In this document: positions 15,435 through 24,000 of the stretch, piece after piece | Numbering within the stretch: position 1 is the stretch's first letter | Layout: every line of letters begins with the position of its first letter | Assembly (NCBI GenBank): GCA_032595685.2 | Contig: CP159373.1 | Location: forward strand, 3,165,907 to 3,189,906 | DNA: 24,000 bases | Reading direction: 5' to 3' | Source: Candidatus Electrothrix aestuarii | GTDB lineage: Bacteria; Desulfobacterota; Desulfobulbia; Desulfobulbales; Desulfobulbaceae | Notes under the pieces: generated by a model | What the model was told of the DNA's origin: nothing | Databases searched by the model: none | What the model saw: the letters and a program-made list of their open reading frames with translations, nothing else | Position numbers and translations under genes: made by a program

Positions 15435-16247
15435 TTATATATCATGAATTTCTTCCATGTCTTCCCCGAGATAGGCCTTAATCACCTCTGGATTATTGCG
15501 GACCTCGTTCGGCGTACCTTCCGCGATTTTCTTGCCGTAGTCCATGACAAAAATATGGTCGGATAGGCTCATCACCAGTTTCATATCGTGCTCAATGAGC
15601 AGGATAGAGATGCCGTCATCTCGGATTTCGGTGATAAGTTCATCAAGTTCTACGGTCTCCTGGGGGTTCATTCCGGCTGCGGGCTCATCAAGGAGGAGCA
15701 GGGACGGGTCGGTTGCCAGTGCTCTGGCTATCTCCAGTCTGCGCTGGGCGCCATAGGGGAGGTTTTTTGCGAATTCATCAGCCAGTTCAGCCAAATCGAT
15801 TTTCTCCAGCAGGCTGTAGGAGCGGGCAATGACCTCTTTTTCTTCCTTCTGTGTGCCTTTGTCGCGAAAGATCGCACCTAATACCCTGGCCTTGGTGCGG
15901 CAATGGCAACCAATCATGACGTTTTCCAGAACGCTCATGTCCGGGAAGAGGCGGATGTTCTGAAAGGTCCGCGCCAGTCCCTGTTCCGTCACCTGATTAG
16001 GCTTTAAGCCGTTGAGTCGTTTGCGGCGGCGGCCCGGTGGTGTCAGAAAAAGATTGCCAGAGGTTGGTTTGTAAATCCCGGTCAGGCAGTTGAAAAAGGT
16101 GGTCTTGCCTGCGCCGTTTGGGCCAATCAGGGCGGCGATTTCCCCTTGCCGAACCCGGATATTGAGTTTGTCCAAAGCCCTGATGCCACCGAAGTCCATC
16201 GTGAGATCCTGCACTTCGAGGATAGGATTGTTACTTTGCTCGGTCAT
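15435..16247 (-). CDS. livG: Branched-chain amino acid ABC transporter ATP-binding protein, LivG family
   Basis: Walker A GPNGAGKTT, signature LPYGAQRRLEIARAL and Walker B LLLLDEPAAGM. The LivG-type insertion and the C-terminal EVIKAYLG are present. The ORF is open from 16334, but MTEQSNNPILEVQDLTMDFGG from the ATG at 16247 matches the usual N-terminus (270 aa). Confidence 0.88.
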   Translation of the reverse strand: MTEQSNNPILEVQDLTMDFGGIRALDKLNIRVRQGEIAALIGPNGAGKTTFFNCLTGIYKPTSGNLFLTPPGRRRKRLNGLKPNQVTEQGLARTFQNIRLFPDMSVLENVMIGCHCRTKARVLGAIFRDKGTQKEEKEVIARSYSLLEKIDLAELADEFAKNLPYGAQRRLEIARALATDPSLLLLDEPAAGMNPQETVELDELITEIRDDGISILLIEHDMKLVMSLSDHIFVMDYGKKIAEGTPNEVRNNPEVIKAYLGEDMEEIHDI

Positions 16248-16329
16248 GTTTAGTGAATCCCTGCGAGAGAATTGCGATAAAGACCCGTTGTCAGGCCTGC
16301 TGCTTTTGCACGAAATAGCTGCCAAGTTT

Positions 16330-16513
16330 GGCATGCTTCATATACCCCGAAAAGTAGTTGACACTTTCCGCAAGAACTGTGCCAAGCTATCGGGACAGGA
16401 CAAGCCTAATAGTATCGCAACAGTTTAACTTTACAGGTGTTGTAATAGGTTTCTTGTCTTGGATGAGGCACGACTCATCCAGAAAGTGTCAACCGGCATA
16501 TATGAAGCATGCC
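16330..16513. repeat. Imperfect inverted repeat enclosing about 113 bp, between the cassette and livG
   Basis: The left arm ggcatgcttcatata (16330-16344) ... gttgacactttc (16357-16368) is the exact reverse complement of the right arm gaaagtgtcaac (16482-16493) ... tatatgaagcatgcc (16499-16513). A 6-7-nt indel lies between the two blocks. The interior carries another 7-bp hairpin, ggatgag-gcacga-ctcatcc (16461-16480). Confidence 0.8.
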
Positions 16514-16592
16514 CCAAGTTTATACATATCATACTTGTGTCCCTCGACTATTTGCTCTTATAGCTTTCGCTTTCTTAACAACAGAATTTTCT

Positions 16593-17021
16593 TTATCCTT
16601 GTTTATTATGATCTCTAGTACCAGCAATTCTCATAAAACGCCCTGTTTCACTAATCTCGTGGGCTGCAAATTCTATAAGAGTTCTCCTGCTCTCTTTACT
16701 ACGGGGTGATAAGTCAAGCTGTTTTAAAAGATCAAGTAATTCTGGAGATTCTACTTTACGATCTTCAAAATACGCAACAAGAGCCTCTTTATCCATTTCA
16801 TAAAGAGATTCAACAGGCTTATCAATACGTTTTGAAGCATCGGCAATAAGGATCTCAATTAATTCATTTTTTGTGGCCTTTTTTTTAAATTCAAGTTGTT
16901 GATCTATTAATATATTTTGAAGGCGCTGGATAGTGAATTCTTTGCTATGCTCAAGTCCCGCAATTGCCCCCTTAGTACCCAACCATTGAACTAACATTCT
17001 TGAATCGAATTTTTCTTCCAT
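16593..17021 (-). CDS. Small hypothetical protein with two helix-extension-helix (SAP/Rho-N-like) motifs; candidate DNA-binding partner of the ParA-like ATPase
   Basis: The ATG at 17021-17019 overlaps the ParA stop as TAATG. The track's GTG at 17030 is less likely. The protein is 142 aa: MEEKFDSRMLVQWLG... Two segments resemble HeH/SAP motifs by eye: TIQRLQNILIDQQLEFKKKATKNELIEILI and PELLDLLKQLDLSPRSKESRRTLIEFAA. The DNA is very AT-rich. Confidence 0.6.
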   Translation of the reverse strand: MEEKFDSRMLVQWLGTKGAIAGLEHSKEFTIQRLQNILIDQQLEFKKKATKNELIEILIADASKRIDKPVESLYEMDKEALVAYFEDRKVESPELLDLLKQLDLSPRSKESRRTLIEFAAHEISETGRFMRIAGTRDHNKQG

Positions 17022-17911
17022 TACGGACACCTCTTGAGAAACTCTTCTGTGAGATTCTTAAATTGGCCAGACTGCTTGTCAGCGTTAGGACCACTGATAT
17101 CATACACAGGACAACGATTTTCAGCAGCCTGCCTCAGTCCGTCTCCTTCTGTTATATAGGTGTCGAATACTTCTCCTGTACGCTGAAGACGAAGGAACTC
17201 TGTGCGCTCTGTTGATTTAAGTATTCCGCCCCATTCTCTAGCCATCATTCCTATTGCCCCTGCAAAAAATGTGGGCTGGTATTTTGGGATTTCATCTAAT
17301 GCCGACTGAATCATATTCATATCCTCATTAACCTCCTGAATACATTGCATCGCAGAGGGCACACCGATAGTGCTTTGAAGATCAAGCTTTACTGGAGATA
17401 CACAGTAATCACAAGCAAACACTACCGATCTTAGAAGGTCAGACAATTCAGGGTGAGAATCTATAAGAATATAATCAAATTTTGTATAAAACTGAGACAG
17501 CACATCGCGTAATACCGAAAGATGTTTATACAATCGTCGATTATTTTCTTTGATGTTATTCGAAGCTGGCATTTTTTCGACAGCAACTTGGGATAGACGA
17601 GGGTCAGCAGGAAGTAGATCAATATTATTTTCGAAAACTGGCAACAATTTGACAGTTGCATTAAAAATCGTGTCAGAATACAACTGTTGATACTTATCAA
17701 AAAGTGTCGATCCCCCTTCAATTCGTCCCGTCCGAAAACTTTCAAGCATAGACGGTACAAAGCGACATGTGATACCTCCGCGTTGATAGTCTGTATCGAC
17801 AACTAATATTTTTTTATAATGATATCGTTGCAGAGCAACGGCAAGATGGTAACATGCTGTTGTTTTGCCCACTCCTCCCTTTTCACTTATGAATCCAACG
17901 ACCTTAGCCAT
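17021..17911 (-). CDS. ParA/Soj/MinD-class (SIMIBI) P-loop ATPase
   Basis: 296 aa. It has the deviant Walker A VGFISEKGGVGKTTACYHLAV, Walker A' ILVVDTDYQ and Walker B YILIDSHPE. The C-terminal region ITEGDGLRQAAENRCPVYD is like that of ParA proteins. An RBS, aggaga, lies upstream. Confidence 0.88.
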   Translation of the reverse strand: MAKVVGFISEKGGVGKTTACYHLAVALQRYHYKKILVVDTDYQRGGITCRFVPSMLESFRTGRIEGGSTLFDKYQQLYSDTIFNATVKLLPVFENNIDLLPADPRLSQVAVEKMPASNNIKENNRRLYKHLSVLRDVLSQFYTKFDYILIDSHPELSDLLRSVVFACDYCVSPVKLDLQSTIGVPSAMQCIQEVNEDMNMIQSALDEIPKYQPTFFAGAIGMMAREWGGILKSTERTEFLRLQRTGEVFDTYITEGDGLRQAAENRCPVYDISGPNADKQSGQFKNLTEEFLKRCP

Positions 17912-17958
17912 AAATAATCTCCTTCGTGCTCCATCTGATCAAATATATTTTCGTTTAC

Positions 17959-18588
17959 TTATTTTAGATTCCACTCTCTGATAATTTCTTTACTGTTCTG
18001 AAGCACTCCAAAAATATGTAGGAGTTCTTCATCAGCGGCATTAAGTCCTGTATGGACGGCATAACTCTGTTCATGGAGCACGACAAAATGCCAGTAACGC
18101 CCCATGACATAGGCTCCGTATACAGGATGGTTGTCAGCATTCAGATGCTGGGCCGTGACCATTTCGATCATCAACTGTCCAAGCGGATCATTTGAGGAAT
18201 CATGTTCTTTCTTGTATTCATGGATAAAAAAATAGGGCCTTTTCGGAGAGCGTCTTCCGGCGGCCACCATGAAATCGACAATGCCGGAGACGGTATTGTC
18301 TTCAACGGTCATTGTCAGTTCGCGGGAAAGAAAGGGTTTGCAGTCCGTTTCTTCAAAGCGAATCAGCTCAAGAAGCGGAATGATGAAATAGACCTTGAGT
18401 TCCTCTTCATTCCAATCCCATACATTATCCAACAATTTTTCCTGAAGCCTTTGCAACTGCTGCTTCTCCGCGTTGGAGGGGGCTGAAACCGGGGTCATCC
18501 ATTGTTCAAGCTGTTGGTACTGTTTCTGCTGGACGATATGAAACGTTTCTTCCACCTCTTCAATTGTCCATTTTGAAAAGGACTTCAT
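17959..18588 (-). CDS. Stand-alone PD-(D/E)XK nuclease-fold protein resembling the type I restriction HsdR N-terminal (HSDR_N-like) domain
   Basis: 209 aa. The NEEELKVYFIIPLLELIRF helix is followed by GIVDFMVA...PYFFIHEYKKE, a D...ExK catalytic-type motif, then DPLGQLMIEMVTAQ. An RBS, aggaga, lies upstream, and the gene starts only 48 nt after the livM stop. The coding call is firm. The fold assignment is by eye only. Confidence 0.6.
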   Translation of the reverse strand: MKSFSKWTIEEVEETFHIVQQKQYQQLEQWMTPVSAPSNAEKQQLQRLQEKLLDNVWDWNEEELKVYFIIPLLELIRFEETDCKPFLSRELTMTVEDNTVSGIVDFMVAAGRRSPKRPYFFIHEYKKEHDSSNDPLGQLMIEMVTAQHLNADNHPVYGAYVMGRYWHFVVLHEQSYAVHTGLNAADEELLHIFGVLQNSKEIIREWNLK

Positions 18589-18636: not shown

Positions 18637-19947
18637 CTATGCGTTCTCTCTTTTGTACGTCCGCCGCACAGTGGAGATCAGCCCCTTGGGTCGGAAGACC
18701 ATCATGACGACGAGGGTTGCACCGAAGACCAGCATCCGGTAATCGGCAAAGGCCCGCAGGTATTCCGGCAGCAGCATCAGGACCAAGGCTGCGATAATCA
18801 CCCCGATGATGGAGCCCATCCCGCCCAGCACGACGATGCAGAGGATAATAGCGGATTCAAGAAAGGTAAAGGAAGAAGGGTTCACAAAGGTGGTTTTTGC
18901 GGCAAAGATTACCCCAACCATGCCAGCCCAGAAAGCACCCAGGGCAAAGGCGGTGAGTTTGGTCTTGGTCTTATCGATACCCATAGCCTGACAGGCGATC
19001 TCATCCTCGCGCAGGGCAAACCATGCCCGCCCGATTCGTGAGTTTTGCAGGCGGTTAACCATGAATACCGTGAAAATCACCATCCCTATCATCAGGTAAT
19101 AGAGATAATTGATAGACTGATCCAGGGACATTTCCATGCCGAAAAATCCAGGCCGGGGTACACCGGCGATGCCGCTGGGGCCGTGGGAAAAATCGGTCCA
19201 GTTTTCCAGCACCAAGCGGATGATTTCCCCGAACCCTAAGGTGACAATAGCCAGGTAATCACCTCGTAGGCGCAGGACCGGAAAGCCGAGCAGGATACCG
19301 AAACAGGCAGCCATTAATCCTCCGATAGGGAGGGCTGTCCAGAAGCCGATTCCAAAATGAAGATTGAGCAGGGCATAGGAGTAAGCGCCAACCGCATAAA
19401 AGGCCACGTAGCCAAGATCCAGCAGGCCCGCCACCCCAACAACGATGTTCAGCCCTAATCCCAAGACCACATACATCAGGGCTGTGATCATAATGTTGAT
19501 CTGGTAGGTCGAAAGAAGAAACGGAAAGGCTGAGAGCACTGCCAGAAGTACTCCCAGGATTGGAAGAAATACTTTGGGATTATTGAATAAGATATGCTGC
19601 CAGTTTGTTACTTTGTGTCCTGAAGAGGGGCGTGCTTTTTTCTTTTCTCCTTGTGCGATTTTTATCGTCAAAAACGCTTGCCTGGTGAGGTAGAGAACGA
19701 AACTTCCTAAGGCCACGTAGAGCATATTTTTCCAGCGCCAAGCGACAGTTTCCTCGTAGGGATTGACCTTGATCACCAGAATGGGAAAGGTAAGGAAACT
19801 GAACCAGAGGGCGACGAAGAAGGCTCTTTTGAGATGATTGATTGCGGGTATCTTGTTCATATTCATTATGCTCATGAAAAAACGTGCAGGATATATTGCT
19901 GTCTCTCCAGATCTTTCCAAAATCTGGGGCTCCTGCCCCTGCATCAT
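18637..19947 (-). CDS. livM: Branched-chain amino acid ABC transporter permease, LivM family
   Basis: The core YVVLGLGLNIVVGVAGLLDLGYVAFYAVGAYSYALL...GDYLAIVTLGFGEII is typical of LivM, and like E. coli LivM it has an N-terminal membrane extension. The start is uncertain. The ORF opens at 19947, but the internal Met codons at 19875, 19866 and 19860 (MSIMNMNK) are equally plausible, and a weak hairpin at 19924-19941 would favour them. Confidence 0.85.
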   Translation of the reverse strand: MMQGQEPQILERSGETAIYPARFFMSIMNMNKIPAINHLKRAFFVALWFSFLTFPILVIKVNPYEETVAWRWKNMLYVALGSFVLYLTRQAFLTIKIAQGEKKKARPSSGHKVTNWQHILFNNPKVFLPILGVLLAVLSAFPFLLSTYQINIMITALMYVVLGLGLNIVVGVAGLLDLGYVAFYAVGAYSYALLNLHFGIGFWTALPIGGLMAACFGILLGFPVLRLRGDYLAIVTLGFGEIIRLVLENWTDFSHGPSGIAGVPRPGFFGMEMSLDQSINYLYYLMIGMVIFTVFMVNRLQNSRIGRAWFALREDEIACQAMGIDKTKTKLTAFALGAFWAGMVGVIFAAKTTFVNPSSFTFLESAIILCIVVLGGMGSIIGVIIAALVLMLLPEYLRAFADYRMLVFGATLVVMMVFRPKGLISTVRRTYKRENA

Positions 19948-20015: not shown

Positions 20016-20402
20016 TTAAAGCAAGCCCGCAAGCAGCCGTCCCACCCAGACCAGGAAGACACCAAAAATAATTTGCCCTCCTGCATTAAGGAGAGCTAAT
20101 TCCATGCGGCTTTCCCGAATGAGATTCAGGGTTTCATTCCCAAAGGTAGAAAAGGTGGTAAAGGCTCCGAGGAGGCCGATAAGAAGAAAACTTCGCGTTT
20201 CGGGCGAGAACATCGACTTCATTTCCACTAAGGCGGTTAAAAAACCTATCAGCAAGCAGCCGAGCATGTTGACGCTCAAGGTGCCAAAGGGAAAAATAAT
20301 GGAGCCGGATCGGCCCTGAACCCAGGAGCTGACCAAAAAACGCAGAACAGCCCCTGTGAAACCACCAGCCCCGATAAGAGAAAGCTTAAGTAGAGATTCC
20401 AT
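20016..20402 (-). CDS. crcB: Fluoride channel CrcB/FluC
   Basis: 128 aa from the ATG at 20402; the track start at 20411 is a TTG. Motifs LIGAGGFTGAVLRF and GAFTTFSTFGNE, plus four hydrophobic helices, are characteristic of the family. Confidence 0.9.
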   Translation of the reverse strand: MESLLKLSLIGAGGFTGAVLRFLVSSWVQGRSGSIIFPFGTLSVNMLGCLLIGFLTALVEMKSMFSPETRSFLLIGLLGAFTTFSTFGNETLNLIRESRMELALLNAGGQIIFGVFLVWVGRLLAGLL

Positions 20403-20428
20403 AGCGTTCAACCTTTAAAGAACCTCTC

Positions 20429-23400
20429 TTATTGCCCCAGCAAGCCGTTCAGGAGATTAGGAACCACCTTATCAACCTGTTCTCTCAGGATGCTTCTGGT
20501 TGCCTGGCCTGCTGCCTGCTTGAGTAACTCCGATGAAGCATCCATCATAGCTTCCCGACTATAGGCTGGTTTTTCTTTCGTCCCCCTTATAGGAACTTTC
20601 AGCGTGGTTCCCTTAAGCAATTCGTATCCCTTTTTACCCAAGAGCCTTTGGGTTACCGGGACCTCAACAATATAGTTCAGGCTTCCGTCTATTCCTGCTG
20701 AACCGCTGATGACCATTTCGGAATCAGCGATTGTTACCTTAATCGGTGTACAGCTGACCTGTCCCTGCACGCTCTCGCAGGTCAGCTCCTTATTTTTCAG
20801 CGTGAGGCTTCTGTCCACATAGCCAGCCATATCCAGGATGCTATTCAGCGCGCCTTTGGCTTCTAAGGCCACGGCTTTCAGATCGAGGTAGACCTTGAAA
20901 TCAATCTTTTCCATCCCTTTTTCATCCAGGGGCAGGGAAAAGCGATCCAGCCGAACAGTGATAATACCCTCAGCGTTTGCCAGGGCGCCAAAAATAGGGT
21001 GGATACCTTTGAGGACTTTCTCGGTTAAGGCCTCTTCAAGCTGCACGTCAGTCAGTACCTGTTCGCCCTCAGCCATTGTCAGAAGCGGTGGCTGCTGGGT
21101 ATAATCAATGCGGGGCGAAAACTGCAACCAGCCGCCATTCAAAGTTCCTTTGATAACACCTGCCATCACCCCTTCCTTCATATCGGTGTCCAGAGTGAGT
21201 TTGCTAATATCTATGCCCGATTGGGAAAAGGAGTCGGCATAGATTTTTGTGGCAAAACGGAGGTCAATCTTGGCATTTTTCTTTTCTTCGGCAGTAAGGG
21301 GATAATAGAGAGAAAATTTTTCTTTCTTTTTTCCGGTAGCTTCAATGCCCAAGGGGTACATACCGTTCAGGATAGCAACTAAGGAGGCTAAATCCGGGGT
21401 AGCATATCCGTTTAAGGTAAAATGCGGTTTCTTACCGCTGAGCTGAAATTCACCGTCTGCCTGGAGACTCAATGGTGCGGATTCAATATCAAAGGTGGTA
21501 AACTGAACATCACCGGCAGTCAGATCTCCATGCAGGCGACTCCTGAAAATAAGTTTTTGCCGTTCTATCAGGAGGTCATCTTTGGCCTTTTGTCCCCGTA
21601 CCTTTTCTCCGGCTTTCCTGTAGGTAAAATCATCAATATCCAACTTCACCGTTCCGGCATTCCCCTTATTGCTTGTTCCGGCGATCTTGACATCTTCTTT
21701 TCTCTCTGCCAGATCAAGAGAGAATATCGCATCTCCACCAAACTTTTGCTCGGACCCCATCGCTCCCAGCTGCTGCAATAAGGTGGTCAGTTTTTCAAGA
21801 TTTGATCTGCCGCTGACCTGCAGGGTCTTGATTGCCGGGGCAGGTTTTTTTTGCCAATCATCAAGGAAGATTTTTTCTATTTTGATGTCTGAGAAGCCTG
21901 AGTTTAGCGATAAATTGCGCAAAACCAAACGATGATTCTTGGTGTCAATGAGGTTGTATCCCCCTCCCTGGGCAAAGAAAGCATCCTTGCTGGCTGCTTT
22001 CTCCAGAGGACGTACGGCCTCTTCTACATTGGGGGTGGGTTCCGGCTTGGTTGTAAAAAGTGAGAGATCAGGATCCTGAAGGACTTTTCCCTGGCGGTAG
22101 AGAATAAACTGCTTCACCCGGCTATCCAGGGTACTCACAACCAAGCGGTCTTTTTCTGTATAGCCGGTGGCCTGTAGCTTCATGTCACCGGCAATACTGG
22201 TTTCCTGTTCTAAGAGATCAAAACGATGGAGCAGTTCTGTTACCCGGGCCAGAGGTCCATCTGTGTTCAGCTGATAATTGGCCATGATCTGTCCCTGATC
22301 CCGATACAGTCCAGTGAAAGATCCAGAGAATTTGCCCGCCCAAGAGGACAGGTCAAAGGTGAAATCCGCAGCCTCTGCCTTTGCCGTAGGAAAATGCCCT
22401 GGTGTGACCAAGGTACCGTTAAAAATGAACGGATGCACCGGCAGCACCTCTCTCTTTTGCAGAGAGAGACGGTAATCGTTAATGGCAATCATGGTACGTA
22501 TCGTATAACGATCTTCGTTATCCTTTGTCGTTTCCAGATTCAGGTTCAAGTTGCCGCCTGCGTCCCAATCAAAGCGAATAATCCGACCAAGTTCTTTTAC
22601 TGCCTTATCAAGGTTTGCTGATCCCTTGAGGGTGAAATGTTGCAGATTTCCCTGCCCCTCTATATCGAGAAAGTCAGCCTTAAGGGCTATTTTCTCGACC
22701 TCTGGTTCATTACCTGTCATGCTCCCGTTCAAGCGCAGGCTGAAGGGGCTCTTCCAGACAAAGGACTGCTTATTTTGCCGACCTGCCAAGTCCTCAACGA
22801 TGGCATCCGCCTTTACCTGCATGACTTTGTCCTGTTCTTCCAGGTCAAAAGTCAATGAGGCCTTGCCATTCTCCAGCCTGAGATTCTCCTGGGCCTTGAG
22901 AAGGCCGGGCAACTGCGCGAGTAACACCGGTAGATCAAATTTCGCTGTACCGTTTGCCTTTAAGCCCTGTTTGCCATAGCTGGACTGAAGATCCACAGAA
23001 CCAAGATCAGAGAGCATTTTTAGCTCCGGCAATTGCCATTCTTTTTTCTCATCACGTTGCAGATGGAGCTCAAAGGCCAGCTGCTCCAGCTGCGGATGAT
23101 CATCTTGCAAAAAACCTCCTGTCAGGTCAAGTTCATGCAGGGTGATCGGGCCACTAAGGACCAAATTGCCTCCCTCGGTATTTTTCACGGTCAAATTAGC
23201 TGCGAGGATAGCCTTGCCCTGGGGAACATTGCTCCCGGCTGGCGCCAAAGCGAGAAAGGGGGAAAGCTGGACATCTGATAAGGTGATCTTCATATCAGCA
23301 GTCATGAGATCCAACAGATTTCCTTTAAGCGAGGGGAGGTGGGCCGTCCCTTGTACATTTACCTGACCAGCAGTTTGACCAGTAGCCTGCTCAGCAGCAC

Positions 23401-24000
23401 TTGCCAGAGCAAGATTCAGGTCCAGGGTGTCAGAGGCCAGGGTGAGTTCCAGATTCCCTTGCTGTAATAAGGGCTGGGGCTGCTGCTCTCCTTGCTGTAC
23501 TTTGATAATGGCTTGGTTAAGGAGGAGCTTTGCGTTCATTTGATGCCAGAACCAAGTTTCGGGCTCTTTGCTTCCGTCCTCGTTTTTCACTTGGTCAGCA
23601 TTGCCGCCGTCCTTTACTGAGGAGCCTTTCGTATCAGTTTGCGGAGCAACAGGATCGACTTCAGCGCCAGGTGTGGGCTGGGTGGTGATAAGCACCACCG
23701 GATCATCCACCGTAATGGTTCCGAGGTTTTTCGGAGCCATCAGTAAGGAAAAGAGCCCCTGGGTTCCAGTCAACCGGGCAGCGTCGATCTTGTAGGACTG
23801 GTCATGATAAGAGATCTCTGAGCATTGTAGTCCCTTACTCCAGCCTATCTCGCAATCACCAAGCGCGAGTTTTCCTGGAGAGCTGTTGTTTACCTTGTCA
23901 ACAACGCTGTCCTTCACCCAGTCCGAGGAAAGAATGAGGGGAATCACGGCCATGGTGATGCCGAAAAGTACAAGTGTAAAGAGCAGCGTTGCTCCCACAA
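20429..24000 (-). CDS. Large AsmA-family-like envelope protein; the N-terminus probably lies just beyond the right edge
   Basis: At least 1189 aa. An N-terminal anchor helix LLFTLVLFGITMAVIPLIL is followed by a long, beta-rich, low-cysteine body. The C-terminal segment LKVPIRGTKEKPAY resembles the AsmA_2 end motif. The first in-window codon is a GTG at 23998, and the frame is still open at the edge. Confidence 0.55.
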   Translation of the reverse strand, partial: VGATLLFTLVLFGITMAVIPLILSSDWVKDSVVDKVNNSSPGKLALGDCEIGWSKGLQCSEISYHDQSYKIDAARLTGTQGLFSLLMAPKNLGTITVDDPVVLITTQPTPGAEVDPVAPQTDTKGSSVKDGGNADQVKNEDGSKEPETWFWHQMNAKLLLNQAIIKVQQGEQQPQPLLQQGNLELTLASDTLDLNLALASAAEQATGQTAGQVNVQGTAHLPSLKGNLLDLMTADMKITLSDVQLSPFLALAPAGSNVPQGKAILAANLTVKNTEGGNLVLSGPITLHELDLTGGFLQDDHPQLEQLAFELHLQRDEKKEWQLPELKMLSDLGSVDLQSSYGKQGLKANGTAKFDLPVLLAQLPGLLKAQENLRLENGKASLTFDLEEQDKVMQVKADAIVEDLAGRQNKQSFVWKSPFSLRLNGSMTGNEPEVEKIALKADFLDIEGQGNLQHFTLKGSANLDKAVKELGRIIRFDWDAGGNLNLNLETTKDNEDRYTIRTMIAINDYRLSLQKREVLPVHPFIFNGTLVTPGHFPTAKAEAADFTFDLSSWAGKFSGSFTGLYRDQGQIMANYQLNTDGPLARVTELLHRFDLLEQETSIAGDMKLQATGYTEKDRLVVSTLDSRVKQFILYRQGKVLQDPDLSLFTTKPEPTPNVEEAVRPLEKAASKDAFFAQGGGYNLIDTKNHRLVLRNLSLNSGFSDIKIEKIFLDDWQKKPAPAIKTLQVSGRSNLEKLTTLLQQLGAMGSEQKFGGDAIFSLDLAERKEDVKIAGTSNKGNAGTVKLDIDDFTYRKAGEKVRGQKAKDDLLIERQKLIFRSRLHGDLTAGDVQFTTFDIESAPLSLQADGEFQLSGKKPHFTLNGYATPDLASLVAILNGMYPLGIEATGKKKEKFSLYYPLTAEEKKNAKIDLRFATKIYADSFSQSGIDISKLTLDTDMKEGVMAGVIKGTLNGGWLQFSPRIDYTQQPPLLTMAEGEQVLTDVQLEEALTEKVLKGIHPIFGALANAEGIITVRLDRFSLPLDEKGMEKIDFKVYLDLKAVALEAKGALNSILDMAGYVDRSLTLKNKELTCESVQGQVSCTPIKVTIADSEMVISGSAGIDGSLNYIVEVPVTQRLLGKKGYELLKGTTLKVPIRGTKEKPAYSREAMMDASSELLKQAAGQATRSILREQVDKVVPNLLNGLLGQ

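Follow-up and report, generated by a model that had tools for sequence, protein, structure and literature searches.

Why are livM and livG, two genes of a branched-chain amino-acid ATP-binding cassette (ABC) transporter that normally adjoin each other, set apart in the cable bacterium Candidatus Electrothrix aestuarii, and do the genes that part them make up a single system? In the 24-kb stretch of DNA analysed here (the window, to whose positions all coordinates refer), livM and livG are separated by three co-directional minus-strand genes, which encode proteins of 209, 296 and 142 amino acids: a stand-alone PD-(D/E)XK protein, here named ORF1 (for open reading frame), a ParA/Soj-class ATPase (ParA), and an all-helical partner of this ATPase (ORF3). 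An earlier note on this DNA had proposed that the three genes were acquired together as one module, possibly one in which the ParA ATPase and an adaptor would be coupled to a nuclease effector. We arrive at a different answer, to which we give a probability of about 0.65: the locus would be a composite of parts of different ages, in which the ParA-ORF3 pair, captured by a variable slot, rides as a partition-type passenger, and not a three-gene system.

An insertion in a transporter gene pair

Outside the genus, the comparison comprised the 45 non-Electrothrix relatives among the matches listed, whose livG is 61-75% identical. In all 45, livM and livG are adjacent, at most 85 nt apart, and not one of the three genes intervenes. 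The separation seen in E. aestuarii is therefore real and derived and, judged from this synteny, the DNA between the two genes is an insertion relative to other Desulfobulbaceae. The starting observation of the earlier note, three packed co-directional genes between normally adjacent neighbours, is thus borne out both by the confirmed ORFs and by the relatives listed.

The insertion is bounded upstream by the core gene livM (18637-19947, minus strand), a livM-like branched-chain amino-acid ABC permease gene (Pfam BPD_transp_2, 1.5e-51), and downstream by the core gene livG (15435-16247, minus strand), an ABC ATPase gene recognised by Pfam ABC_tran and BCA_ABC_TP_C. ORF1 (17959-18588, minus strand) starts 48 nt past the livM stop codon. 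ParA (17021-17911, minus strand) comes next, and its stop codon overlaps the ATG of ORF3 (16593-17021, minus strand) in the sequence TAATG.

Two ages within one gene cluster

Within the genus, loci were reached through exact-protein look-ups of ORF1 orthologues and are cited below by their numbers. Synteny of ORF1 with livM extends to at least four other genomes of the Electrothrix clade (L084, L085, L123 from Electrothrix sp. GW3-4, and L125 from E. laxa), and orthologues more than 90% identical occur in at least eight Electrothrix taxa. Against three Electrothrix genomes, the rate of synonymous substitution (dS) of ORF1 is 0.59-0.81, compared with 0.63-1.18 for livM and livG, and the ratio of non-synonymous to synonymous rates (dN/dS) is 0.045-0.073, compared with 0.058-0.173. 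By these comparisons, ORF1 is an old gene of the Electrothrix backbone under strong purifying selection.

The remainder of the cluster has a different character. The segment at 16593-17966 (1374 bp, minus strand) has a guanine-plus-cytosine (GC) content of 0.389, the minimum of the window (z = -3.6), where windows of the same length have a mean of 0.485 and a standard deviation of 0.027. The GC content at third codon positions (GC3) is 0.238 in ORF3 and 0.330 in ParA, 0.505 in ORF1, which is close to the host range of 0.54-0.63, and 0.62-0.63 in livM and livG, so that the compositional contrast described earlier, with ORF1 as an intermediate, is upheld. The edges of the foreign DNA are sharp. 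From livM through ORF1, L084 and L085 run colinear with the window, at 80-82% nucleotide identity, up to a break at 17967, within the last ORF1 codons, and homology to the E. laxa slot described below resumes at 16592, 1 nt past the ORF3 stop codon, which limits the recently acquired segment to 16593-17966. It contains the last ORF1 codons, a 47-nt leader, ParA and ORF3, and nothing more. DNA homology to the closest relative of this module (L126, 73% nucleotide identity) is confined to 17924-16621.

ParA and ORF3 are compositionally foreign and horizontally spread. By its synteny, dS, dN/dS and GC3, ORF1 is an old gene, inherited vertically and under selection; ParA and ORF3 came recently. Horizontal acquisition, which had been claimed for the whole trio, holds for ParA and ORF3, given their foreign composition and their spread, and does not hold for ORF1, which belongs to the Electrothrix backbone.

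Could the three genes nevertheless work as one acquired defence or addiction system, with ParA as a scanner and ORF3 as an adaptor that directs the ORF1 nuclease? They are tightly packed and co-directional, with no terminator predicted between them, the nuclease motif and fold of ORF1 are intact, and the protein matches a cas-associated PD_DExK profile (see below). However, in four other Electrothrix genomes ORF1 is found as a syntenic backbone gene, followed each time by other genes; its age and composition set it apart from the pair; and PADLOC returns no system match for ParA or its partner. The two parts do not keep company elsewhere either: no ORF1 relative is present in any of the 32 fetched loci that contain an ORF3 relative (some of them duplicate copies of the same contig), and the ORF1-family loci (L084-L086 and L114-L125) contain neither ParA nor ORF3. 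The earlier note had named in advance, as grounds for abandoning its module of ATPase, adaptor and nuclease effector, a survey in which the three genes did not co-occur, and they were not found together in other genomes, which tells against the module on the note's own terms. We give hardly any credence to a joint system of this kind.

The resident nuclease-like gene

The D...EYK motif pointed out earlier in ORF1 is real and holds across the family, in whose alignment D105, K126 and Q138 never vary and E124 hardly does; the family also has its own conserved N-terminal region of ~60 amino acids. The AlphaFold2 (AF2) model of ORF1 has a predicted local distance difference test (pLDDT) score of 90.2, and Foldseek matches it to Cas4 SSO0001, MGME1, Exo5, ACE1, AddAB and RecE. 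The protein also matches the cas-associated accessory profile PD_DExK of PADLOC (PDLC01472, 3.7e-17); no CRISPR (clustered regularly interspaced short palindromic repeats) array or cas gene accompanies it in the window. Motif and modelled fold place ORF1 in the PD-(D/E)XK superfamily, and catalysis is predicted for it. The likeness to HsdR-N proposed earlier has to be dropped, as neither Pfam HSDR_N nor HSDR_N_2 is matched at E <= 0.1, and 29 relatives give no such match at E <= 0.05; the matches that do appear are weak ones to PDDEXK_9. No curated Pfam or NCBIfam family is matched above threshold, and no sequence-level relative was found in the PDB.

Members of the ORF1 family are frequent in cable bacteria, Beggiatoaceae, Achromatium, Thiomargarita and Chloroflexota. 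They tend to sit within operons or amid small accessory genes, and some of them neighbour PIN, DUF29, TIR/nSTAND or AbiEii genes. In Electronema aureum (OW818638; L119, 5001-5636), an ORF1 paralogue overlaps the panC stop codon by 4 nt and is followed by a cupin gene, a Uma2 nuclease gene, and then panD, which makes it a second wedge in a housekeeping gene pair. The orthologue in L085 (5910-6537), a long-read metagenome contig, has a frameshift or stop near codon 25 and is called as 178 amino acids; this defect is either a sequencing error or the mark of a pseudogene.

A variable slot downstream of ORF1

Five Electrothrix genomes have five different contents between ORF1 and livG. The slot of L084 contains two PDDEXK_2 (Rpn-type) genes and a 149-aa ORF; that of L085, an Rpn-type gene and an MtlR-like 204-aa ORF; that of L123, the C-terminal remnant of an Rpn gene, a CsgG/FlgO-like gene and small ORFs; that of L125, a 333-aa ORF, a pair of ORFs of 107 and 68 amino acids, and an Rpn-type gene; and that of E. 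aestuarii, the ParA-ORF3 pair. Rpn-type genes or their remnants are thus present in four of the five slots, the E. aestuarii slot being currently without one. On this comparison, the ORF1-livG interval is a hypervariable slot, whose content turns over between species. In the comparison with an empty site that had been suggested, livM and livG are contiguous outside Electrothrix; within the genus, ORF1 stays and the slot content differs.

The left edge of variability lies in the last ORF1 codons in all five genomes, and this raises the question of whether ORF1 itself makes the hotspot, by cutting near its own 3' flank like a homing endonuclease, with repair then capturing foreign DNA. The E. 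aureum paralogue, also wedged into an operon (panC-panD) with small accessory genes that include Uma2, and the family members found amid PIN, DUF29, TIR and AbiEii genes would agree with such an activity. Even so, variable DNA between two selected genes is always bounded by them, and no special mechanism is needed to explain its edges; the slot edges show no target-site repeats; and the Rpn-type nucleases of four of the five slots would be an equally good or better driver. We therefore consider it unlikely that ORF1 generates the slot.

An Rpn-type PDDEXK_2 gene, of the kind labelled 'nuclease family transposase', is also present at 2-574 of the window (minus strand, cut by the window edge). 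Its product is 81% identical to the Rpn protein that occupies the slot of L085, a likeness that points to movement of Rpn paralogues from site to site in these genomes.

Two further kinds of mobile DNA were considered and rejected. An integron gene cassette is not indicated, as there is no integrase in the 24-kb window and the sole long inverted repeat belongs to a small element within another ORF remnant (see below). A tRNA-targeted island or a CRISPR association lacks the corresponding features, since no integrase, transposase, tRNA or CRISPR array was found nearby in the window; for integrase and transposase, this agrees with the earlier note.

The history that we favour for this locus would begin with the insertion of ORF1 after livM in the Electrothrix ancestor, where it would have been kept since under strong purifying selection. 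The space between ORF1 and livG would then have become a hypervariable slot, filled in relatives mostly by Rpn-type nucleases and small ORFs. The slot of E. aestuarii would later have captured a minimal module of 1.37 kb, made up of ParA and a coupled 142-aa partner that belong to a cross-phylum family.

The ParA ATPase

ParA carries the deviant Walker A motif EKGGVGKT and matches Pfam AAA_31 (3.3e-24; 86.2 bits, cut-off 27) and CbiA (37.8 bits, cut-off 25.4), as well as PHROG 164, a ParA-like partition protein (8e-36). The Walker A stretch S9-T18, with K11 and K16, is invariant in 20 ParA relatives from several phyla, as are D39, D41 and D151. By these sequence features, the protein is a deviant Walker-A ATPase of the ParA/Soj/MinD type. 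It is remote from the solved ParA, Soj and PF-32 structures (best E about 1e-9) and falls under the NCBIfam cut-offs of ParA_partition (NF041546, 60.2 vs 180 bits) and of the KGGVGR variant (NF047398, 50.7 vs 90 bits). No effector domain is seen in it.

The partner protein

The ORF3 family is small, with 141 representatives among 1.84 billion proteins. Its AF2 model is all-helical, with a pLDDT of 73.5 that exceeds 90 at residues 11-60, and predicts no strand for a ribbon-helix-helix (RHH) fold. Foldseek finds no PDB match below E = 0.9, and profile searches of PDB sequences return only noise. ORF3 is assigned as a ParA partner by its pairing with ParA, and a candidate motif of helix-extension-helix (HeH) or Rho_N type lies in its N-terminal part. 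This motif is supported at the level of the family: ORF3 itself has no Rho_N or SAP match in Pfam at E <= 0.1, but six of 18 relatives match Rho_N at residues ~30-66 (best 6.2e-06), one of them (P0015) above the cut-off (26.5 vs 24.9 bits), and one relative matches Fan1_SAP. These matches among relatives make one HeH-type nucleic-acid-binding motif plausible; of the two that the earlier note had seen in ORF3, the second finds no support. The most conserved parts are the N-terminal helix, with an invariant R8, and a C-terminal block, EFAAxExSETGRFxRI. The Pfam accession PF27945 is precomputed for one relative.

The ParA-ORF3 pair in other genomes and plasmids

In 27 of the 32 loci, the ORF3 relative is immediately preceded by a ParA gene, which is either whole, truncated or interrupted by the end of the contig. 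In four others, only the last 26 ParA codons are left, and in one (L100) there is no ParA. Loss of the ATPase is seen in L081-L083 (Desulfobacteraceae 4572_88 and related metagenome contigs), where an intact ORF3 homologue, 70% identical, has been orphaned: the 26 codons stand upstream of it, and a conserved 96-aa ORF and sufC/sufBD downstream.

On plasmids, the two genes are found on an identical set of 34 of the 72,556 PLSDB records (ParA ~55% and ORF3 ~38% identical). Of these plasmids, 31 are mobilizable and come from Escherichia coli, Salmonella, Shigella and Enterobacter; most of the 31 measure 4.5-5.3 kb, and they are mainly of ColE1 type. In the two that were inspected (4.5-5.1 kb; one with a ColRNAI replicon, one with Rop/Mbe; both MOBP and ColE1-type), the pair is the sole non-backbone cargo. 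On a 49-kb Acidovorax plasmid, it lies between umuDC and type IV secretion genes. A phage origin of the pair was rejected, since searches of the phage and viral collections returned no copy.

Neither gene matches a defence system catalogued in PADLOC-DB v2. There, ParA gives only P-loop or weak matches (PDC-M28B, 7.8e-06, residues 4-53; DndG and PDC-S71, E > 0.02), ORF3 is unmatched, and no named system fits the pair, which accords with the earlier failure to recognise a named anti-phage system. The literature yielded nothing specific on a ParA-HeH system, on ParA-based defence or on mobile elements of cable bacteria.

What the pair may do

In our view, the likeliest reading of the pair is that of a non-canonical module for partition or positioning, carried along as a passenger, which would work like a type Ib ParA module. 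ATP-bound ParA dimers would sit on the nucleoid, ORF3 would contact DNA through its HeH/Rho_N-like motif, and its N-terminal helix with the invariant R8 would probably trigger ATP hydrolysis by ParA, with the positioning or stabilisation of the replicon bearing an ORF3 binding site as the outcome. On the chromosome of E. aestuarii, where it has a leader of just 47 nt, no predicted terminator upstream and no repeats, the pair is probably expressed by read-through from the liv transcript, as a passenger with no functional link to ORF1.

Several observations weigh against a role in partition. By its sequence, the pair is not a canonical ParABS locus, as the partner is not of the ParB or RHH type: ORF3 shows no ParB, RHH or other known centromere-binding domain in Pfam, NCBIfam or PDB sequences, and it is mildly acidic (pI 6.0, the isoelectric point). 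Neither the window nor six other loci show iterated centromere-like repeats beside the pair. A single site, or a site inside the genes, may still serve as a centromere, and given a leader of only 47 nt in the captured segment, any cis site would have to be within the genes themselves. Active partition is not a requirement for high-copy plasmids of ColE1 type. The 16.9-kb plasmid of Yersinia ruckeri carries the pair together with a separate, canonical small ParA pair. Most copies are isolated chromosomal pairs that adjoin toxin-antitoxin genes, and the decayed copies that keep the partner without ParA would equally fit an addiction module.

The same observations can be read as signs of a selfish or protective module, either of toxin-antitoxin type, in which nucleoid binding would make ParA toxic and the partner would act as antidote, or acting in the exclusion of phages or plasmids. 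In the chromosomes of unrelated bacteria, such as Acidobacteriota/Bryobacteraceae, the pair stands isolated among unrelated genes, beside TacA1, HicA or DUF433-type genes, and it is highly conserved yet phylogenetically scattered. Small ColE1-type plasmids typically carry colicin, restriction-modification, resistance or defence genes as cargo, and the pair takes this place on the two small mobilizable plasmids inspected. Its coexistence with a canonical par locus in Y. ruckeri and the missing centromere-like repeats would also be accommodated; together with the overlapping two-gene architecture, the neighbourhoods rich in toxin-antitoxin genes and the orphan partners amount to circumstantial evidence for a toxin-antitoxin function. 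On the other side stand the PADLOC results, limited to P-loop matches, the absence from the phage and viral collections searched, the lack of an effector domain on ParA, and the literature, in which no experimental precedent was found. We regard a selfish or protective function as possible, and hold it only tentatively. The bolder proposal that the pair is a new autonomous mobile module for ParA-based addiction or for phage or plasmid exclusion, spreading in the manner of toxin-antitoxin and defence genes, is a degree more doubtful.

A MITE-like element in a decayed ORF

Between ORF3 and livG lies the remnant of a small slot ORF of ~68 amino acids (16261-16592, minus strand), which is split by a 184-nt element at 16330-16513, to which no strand was assigned. 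The terminal inverted repeats of the element are 20 nt long (GGCATGCTTCATATATGCCG), further inverted repeats are nested in it, and copies of an 8-bp direct repeat, AAACTTGG, stand on either side, at 16514-16521 and 16322-16329. In a tblastn search, the slot ORF of E. laxa (L125, 8486-8692) aligns in two pieces, 16596-16501 and 16329-16261, and removal in silico of the element plus one copy of the repeat restores a single frame homologous to this 68-aa ORF (54% amino-acid identity over 48 amino acids; 80.6% nucleotide identity over 134 nt, E = 1e-31). Two stop codons interrupt this frame. Because excision rejoins the E. laxa-homologous frame, the element is best understood as an insertion, similar to a miniature inverted-repeat transposable element (MITE), into a decaying ORF of backbone age. 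In structure, it fits the definition of a MITE; the decayed ORF at 16261-16592, dated by its homology to E. laxa, is of backbone age and outside the ParA module. The element would have landed in the decaying ORF after the capture of the neighbouring module, as the last step in the history of the locus.

The element folds as RNA at -84.8 kcal/mol (z = -5.9). A structured RNA in the gap between ORF3 and livG was considered and rejected, since no Rfam family is matched at E <= 1 and the strong hairpin is explained by the MITE. The 68-aa ORF is intact in the E. laxa slot, where it overlaps the 107-aa ORF as in a toxin-antitoxin pair; neither of the two ORFs matches Pfam.

The surroundings of the transporter genes

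The true start of livG is probably the ATG at 16247 rather than the start of the longest ORF at 16334. Both the alignments with relatives, which begin no earlier than residue 30-38, and the nucleotide homology to L084 and L085, which picks up again at 16247-16258, favour the ATG at 16247, so that the first 29 codons of the longest ORF are probably untranslated. No livH, livF or livK adjoins livM-livG in the genomes examined.

Synteny with other Electrothrix also stops just upstream of livM, at ~19997. In E. aestuarii, livM is preceded by a CrcB gene (20016-20411) and a 1189-aa ORF (20429-23998) without a Pfam match; in other Electrothrix, DUF2279, CBS, P-II and DUF1538 genes are found there instead. 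A DUF6414 gene, from what we take to be the family of Dodola DolA, lies ~5 kb upstream of livM in L085, L123 and L125, and is not present in the E. aestuarii window.

What the locus means

A candidate "ParA-guided nuclease" defence system is hereby removed from consideration, its genes being a chance juxtaposition of parts of different ages. What takes its place is a hypervariable slot found throughout the genus. It lies inside a conserved pair of ABC-transporter genes of cable bacteria, where a strongly conserved orphan nuclease gene anchors it, and it is a useful marker of mobile-DNA turnover in organisms not yet grown in pure culture. The analysis also flags an uncharacterised and widespread ParA-partner family with a non-canonical, HeH-type partner. 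Because the pair stands alone on ~5-kb plasmids of E. coli, its function, be it partition, addiction or exclusion, is directly testable in a standard host. Should addiction or exclusion prove to be true, the sole cargo of ~5-kb ColE1-type plasmids in pig and human Enterobacteriaceae would be such a module.

Comparison with known systems

The resident and passing elements of the locus each have known counterparts. ORF1 shares the fold and the D...ExK...Q motif of Cas4/RecB-like nucleases, but differs from them in having no cas genes or CRISPR array nearby, no curated family and an N-terminal region of its own. The slot resembles the loci and intergenic hotspots of Rpn (YhgA-like, PDDEXK_2) genes, with Rpn genes or remnants and a content that changes between species, although the E. 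aestuarii slot is now free of Rpn, which is a candidate driver of the turnover. The 184-nt element shares with MITEs its non-coding nature, its size, the 20-nt terminal inverted repeats, the 8-bp target-site duplication and the restoration of an ORF frame by excision; unlike them, it was seen as a single copy, with no second one in the window or in the fetched loci.

Among partition systems, type Ib (ParF-ParG of TP228, ParA-ParB of pB171 par2, delta-omega of pSM19035) is the closest to the pair. Both have a ParA without an N-terminal helix-turn-helix, intact catalytic motifs and a translationally coupled small partner, and the pair is plasmid-borne in the 34 PLSDB records. However, its partner has no RHH or ParB domain and is all-helical and HeH/Rho_N-like, no iterated centromere was found, its ParA is longer (296 amino acids), remote from the solved ParAs and below the NCBIfam cut-off, and the pair is mostly chromosomal and isolated.

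A second point of comparison is offered by McdA-McdB, PpfA-TlpT and ParC-ParP, in which the gene next to that of a ParA-type ATPase encodes a small adaptor, other than ParB and specific to the family. The pair has the same two-gene architecture, with the adaptors compared by their general description only. It differs from these systems in that no cargo genes lie nearby, and in being mobile across phyla and plasmids.

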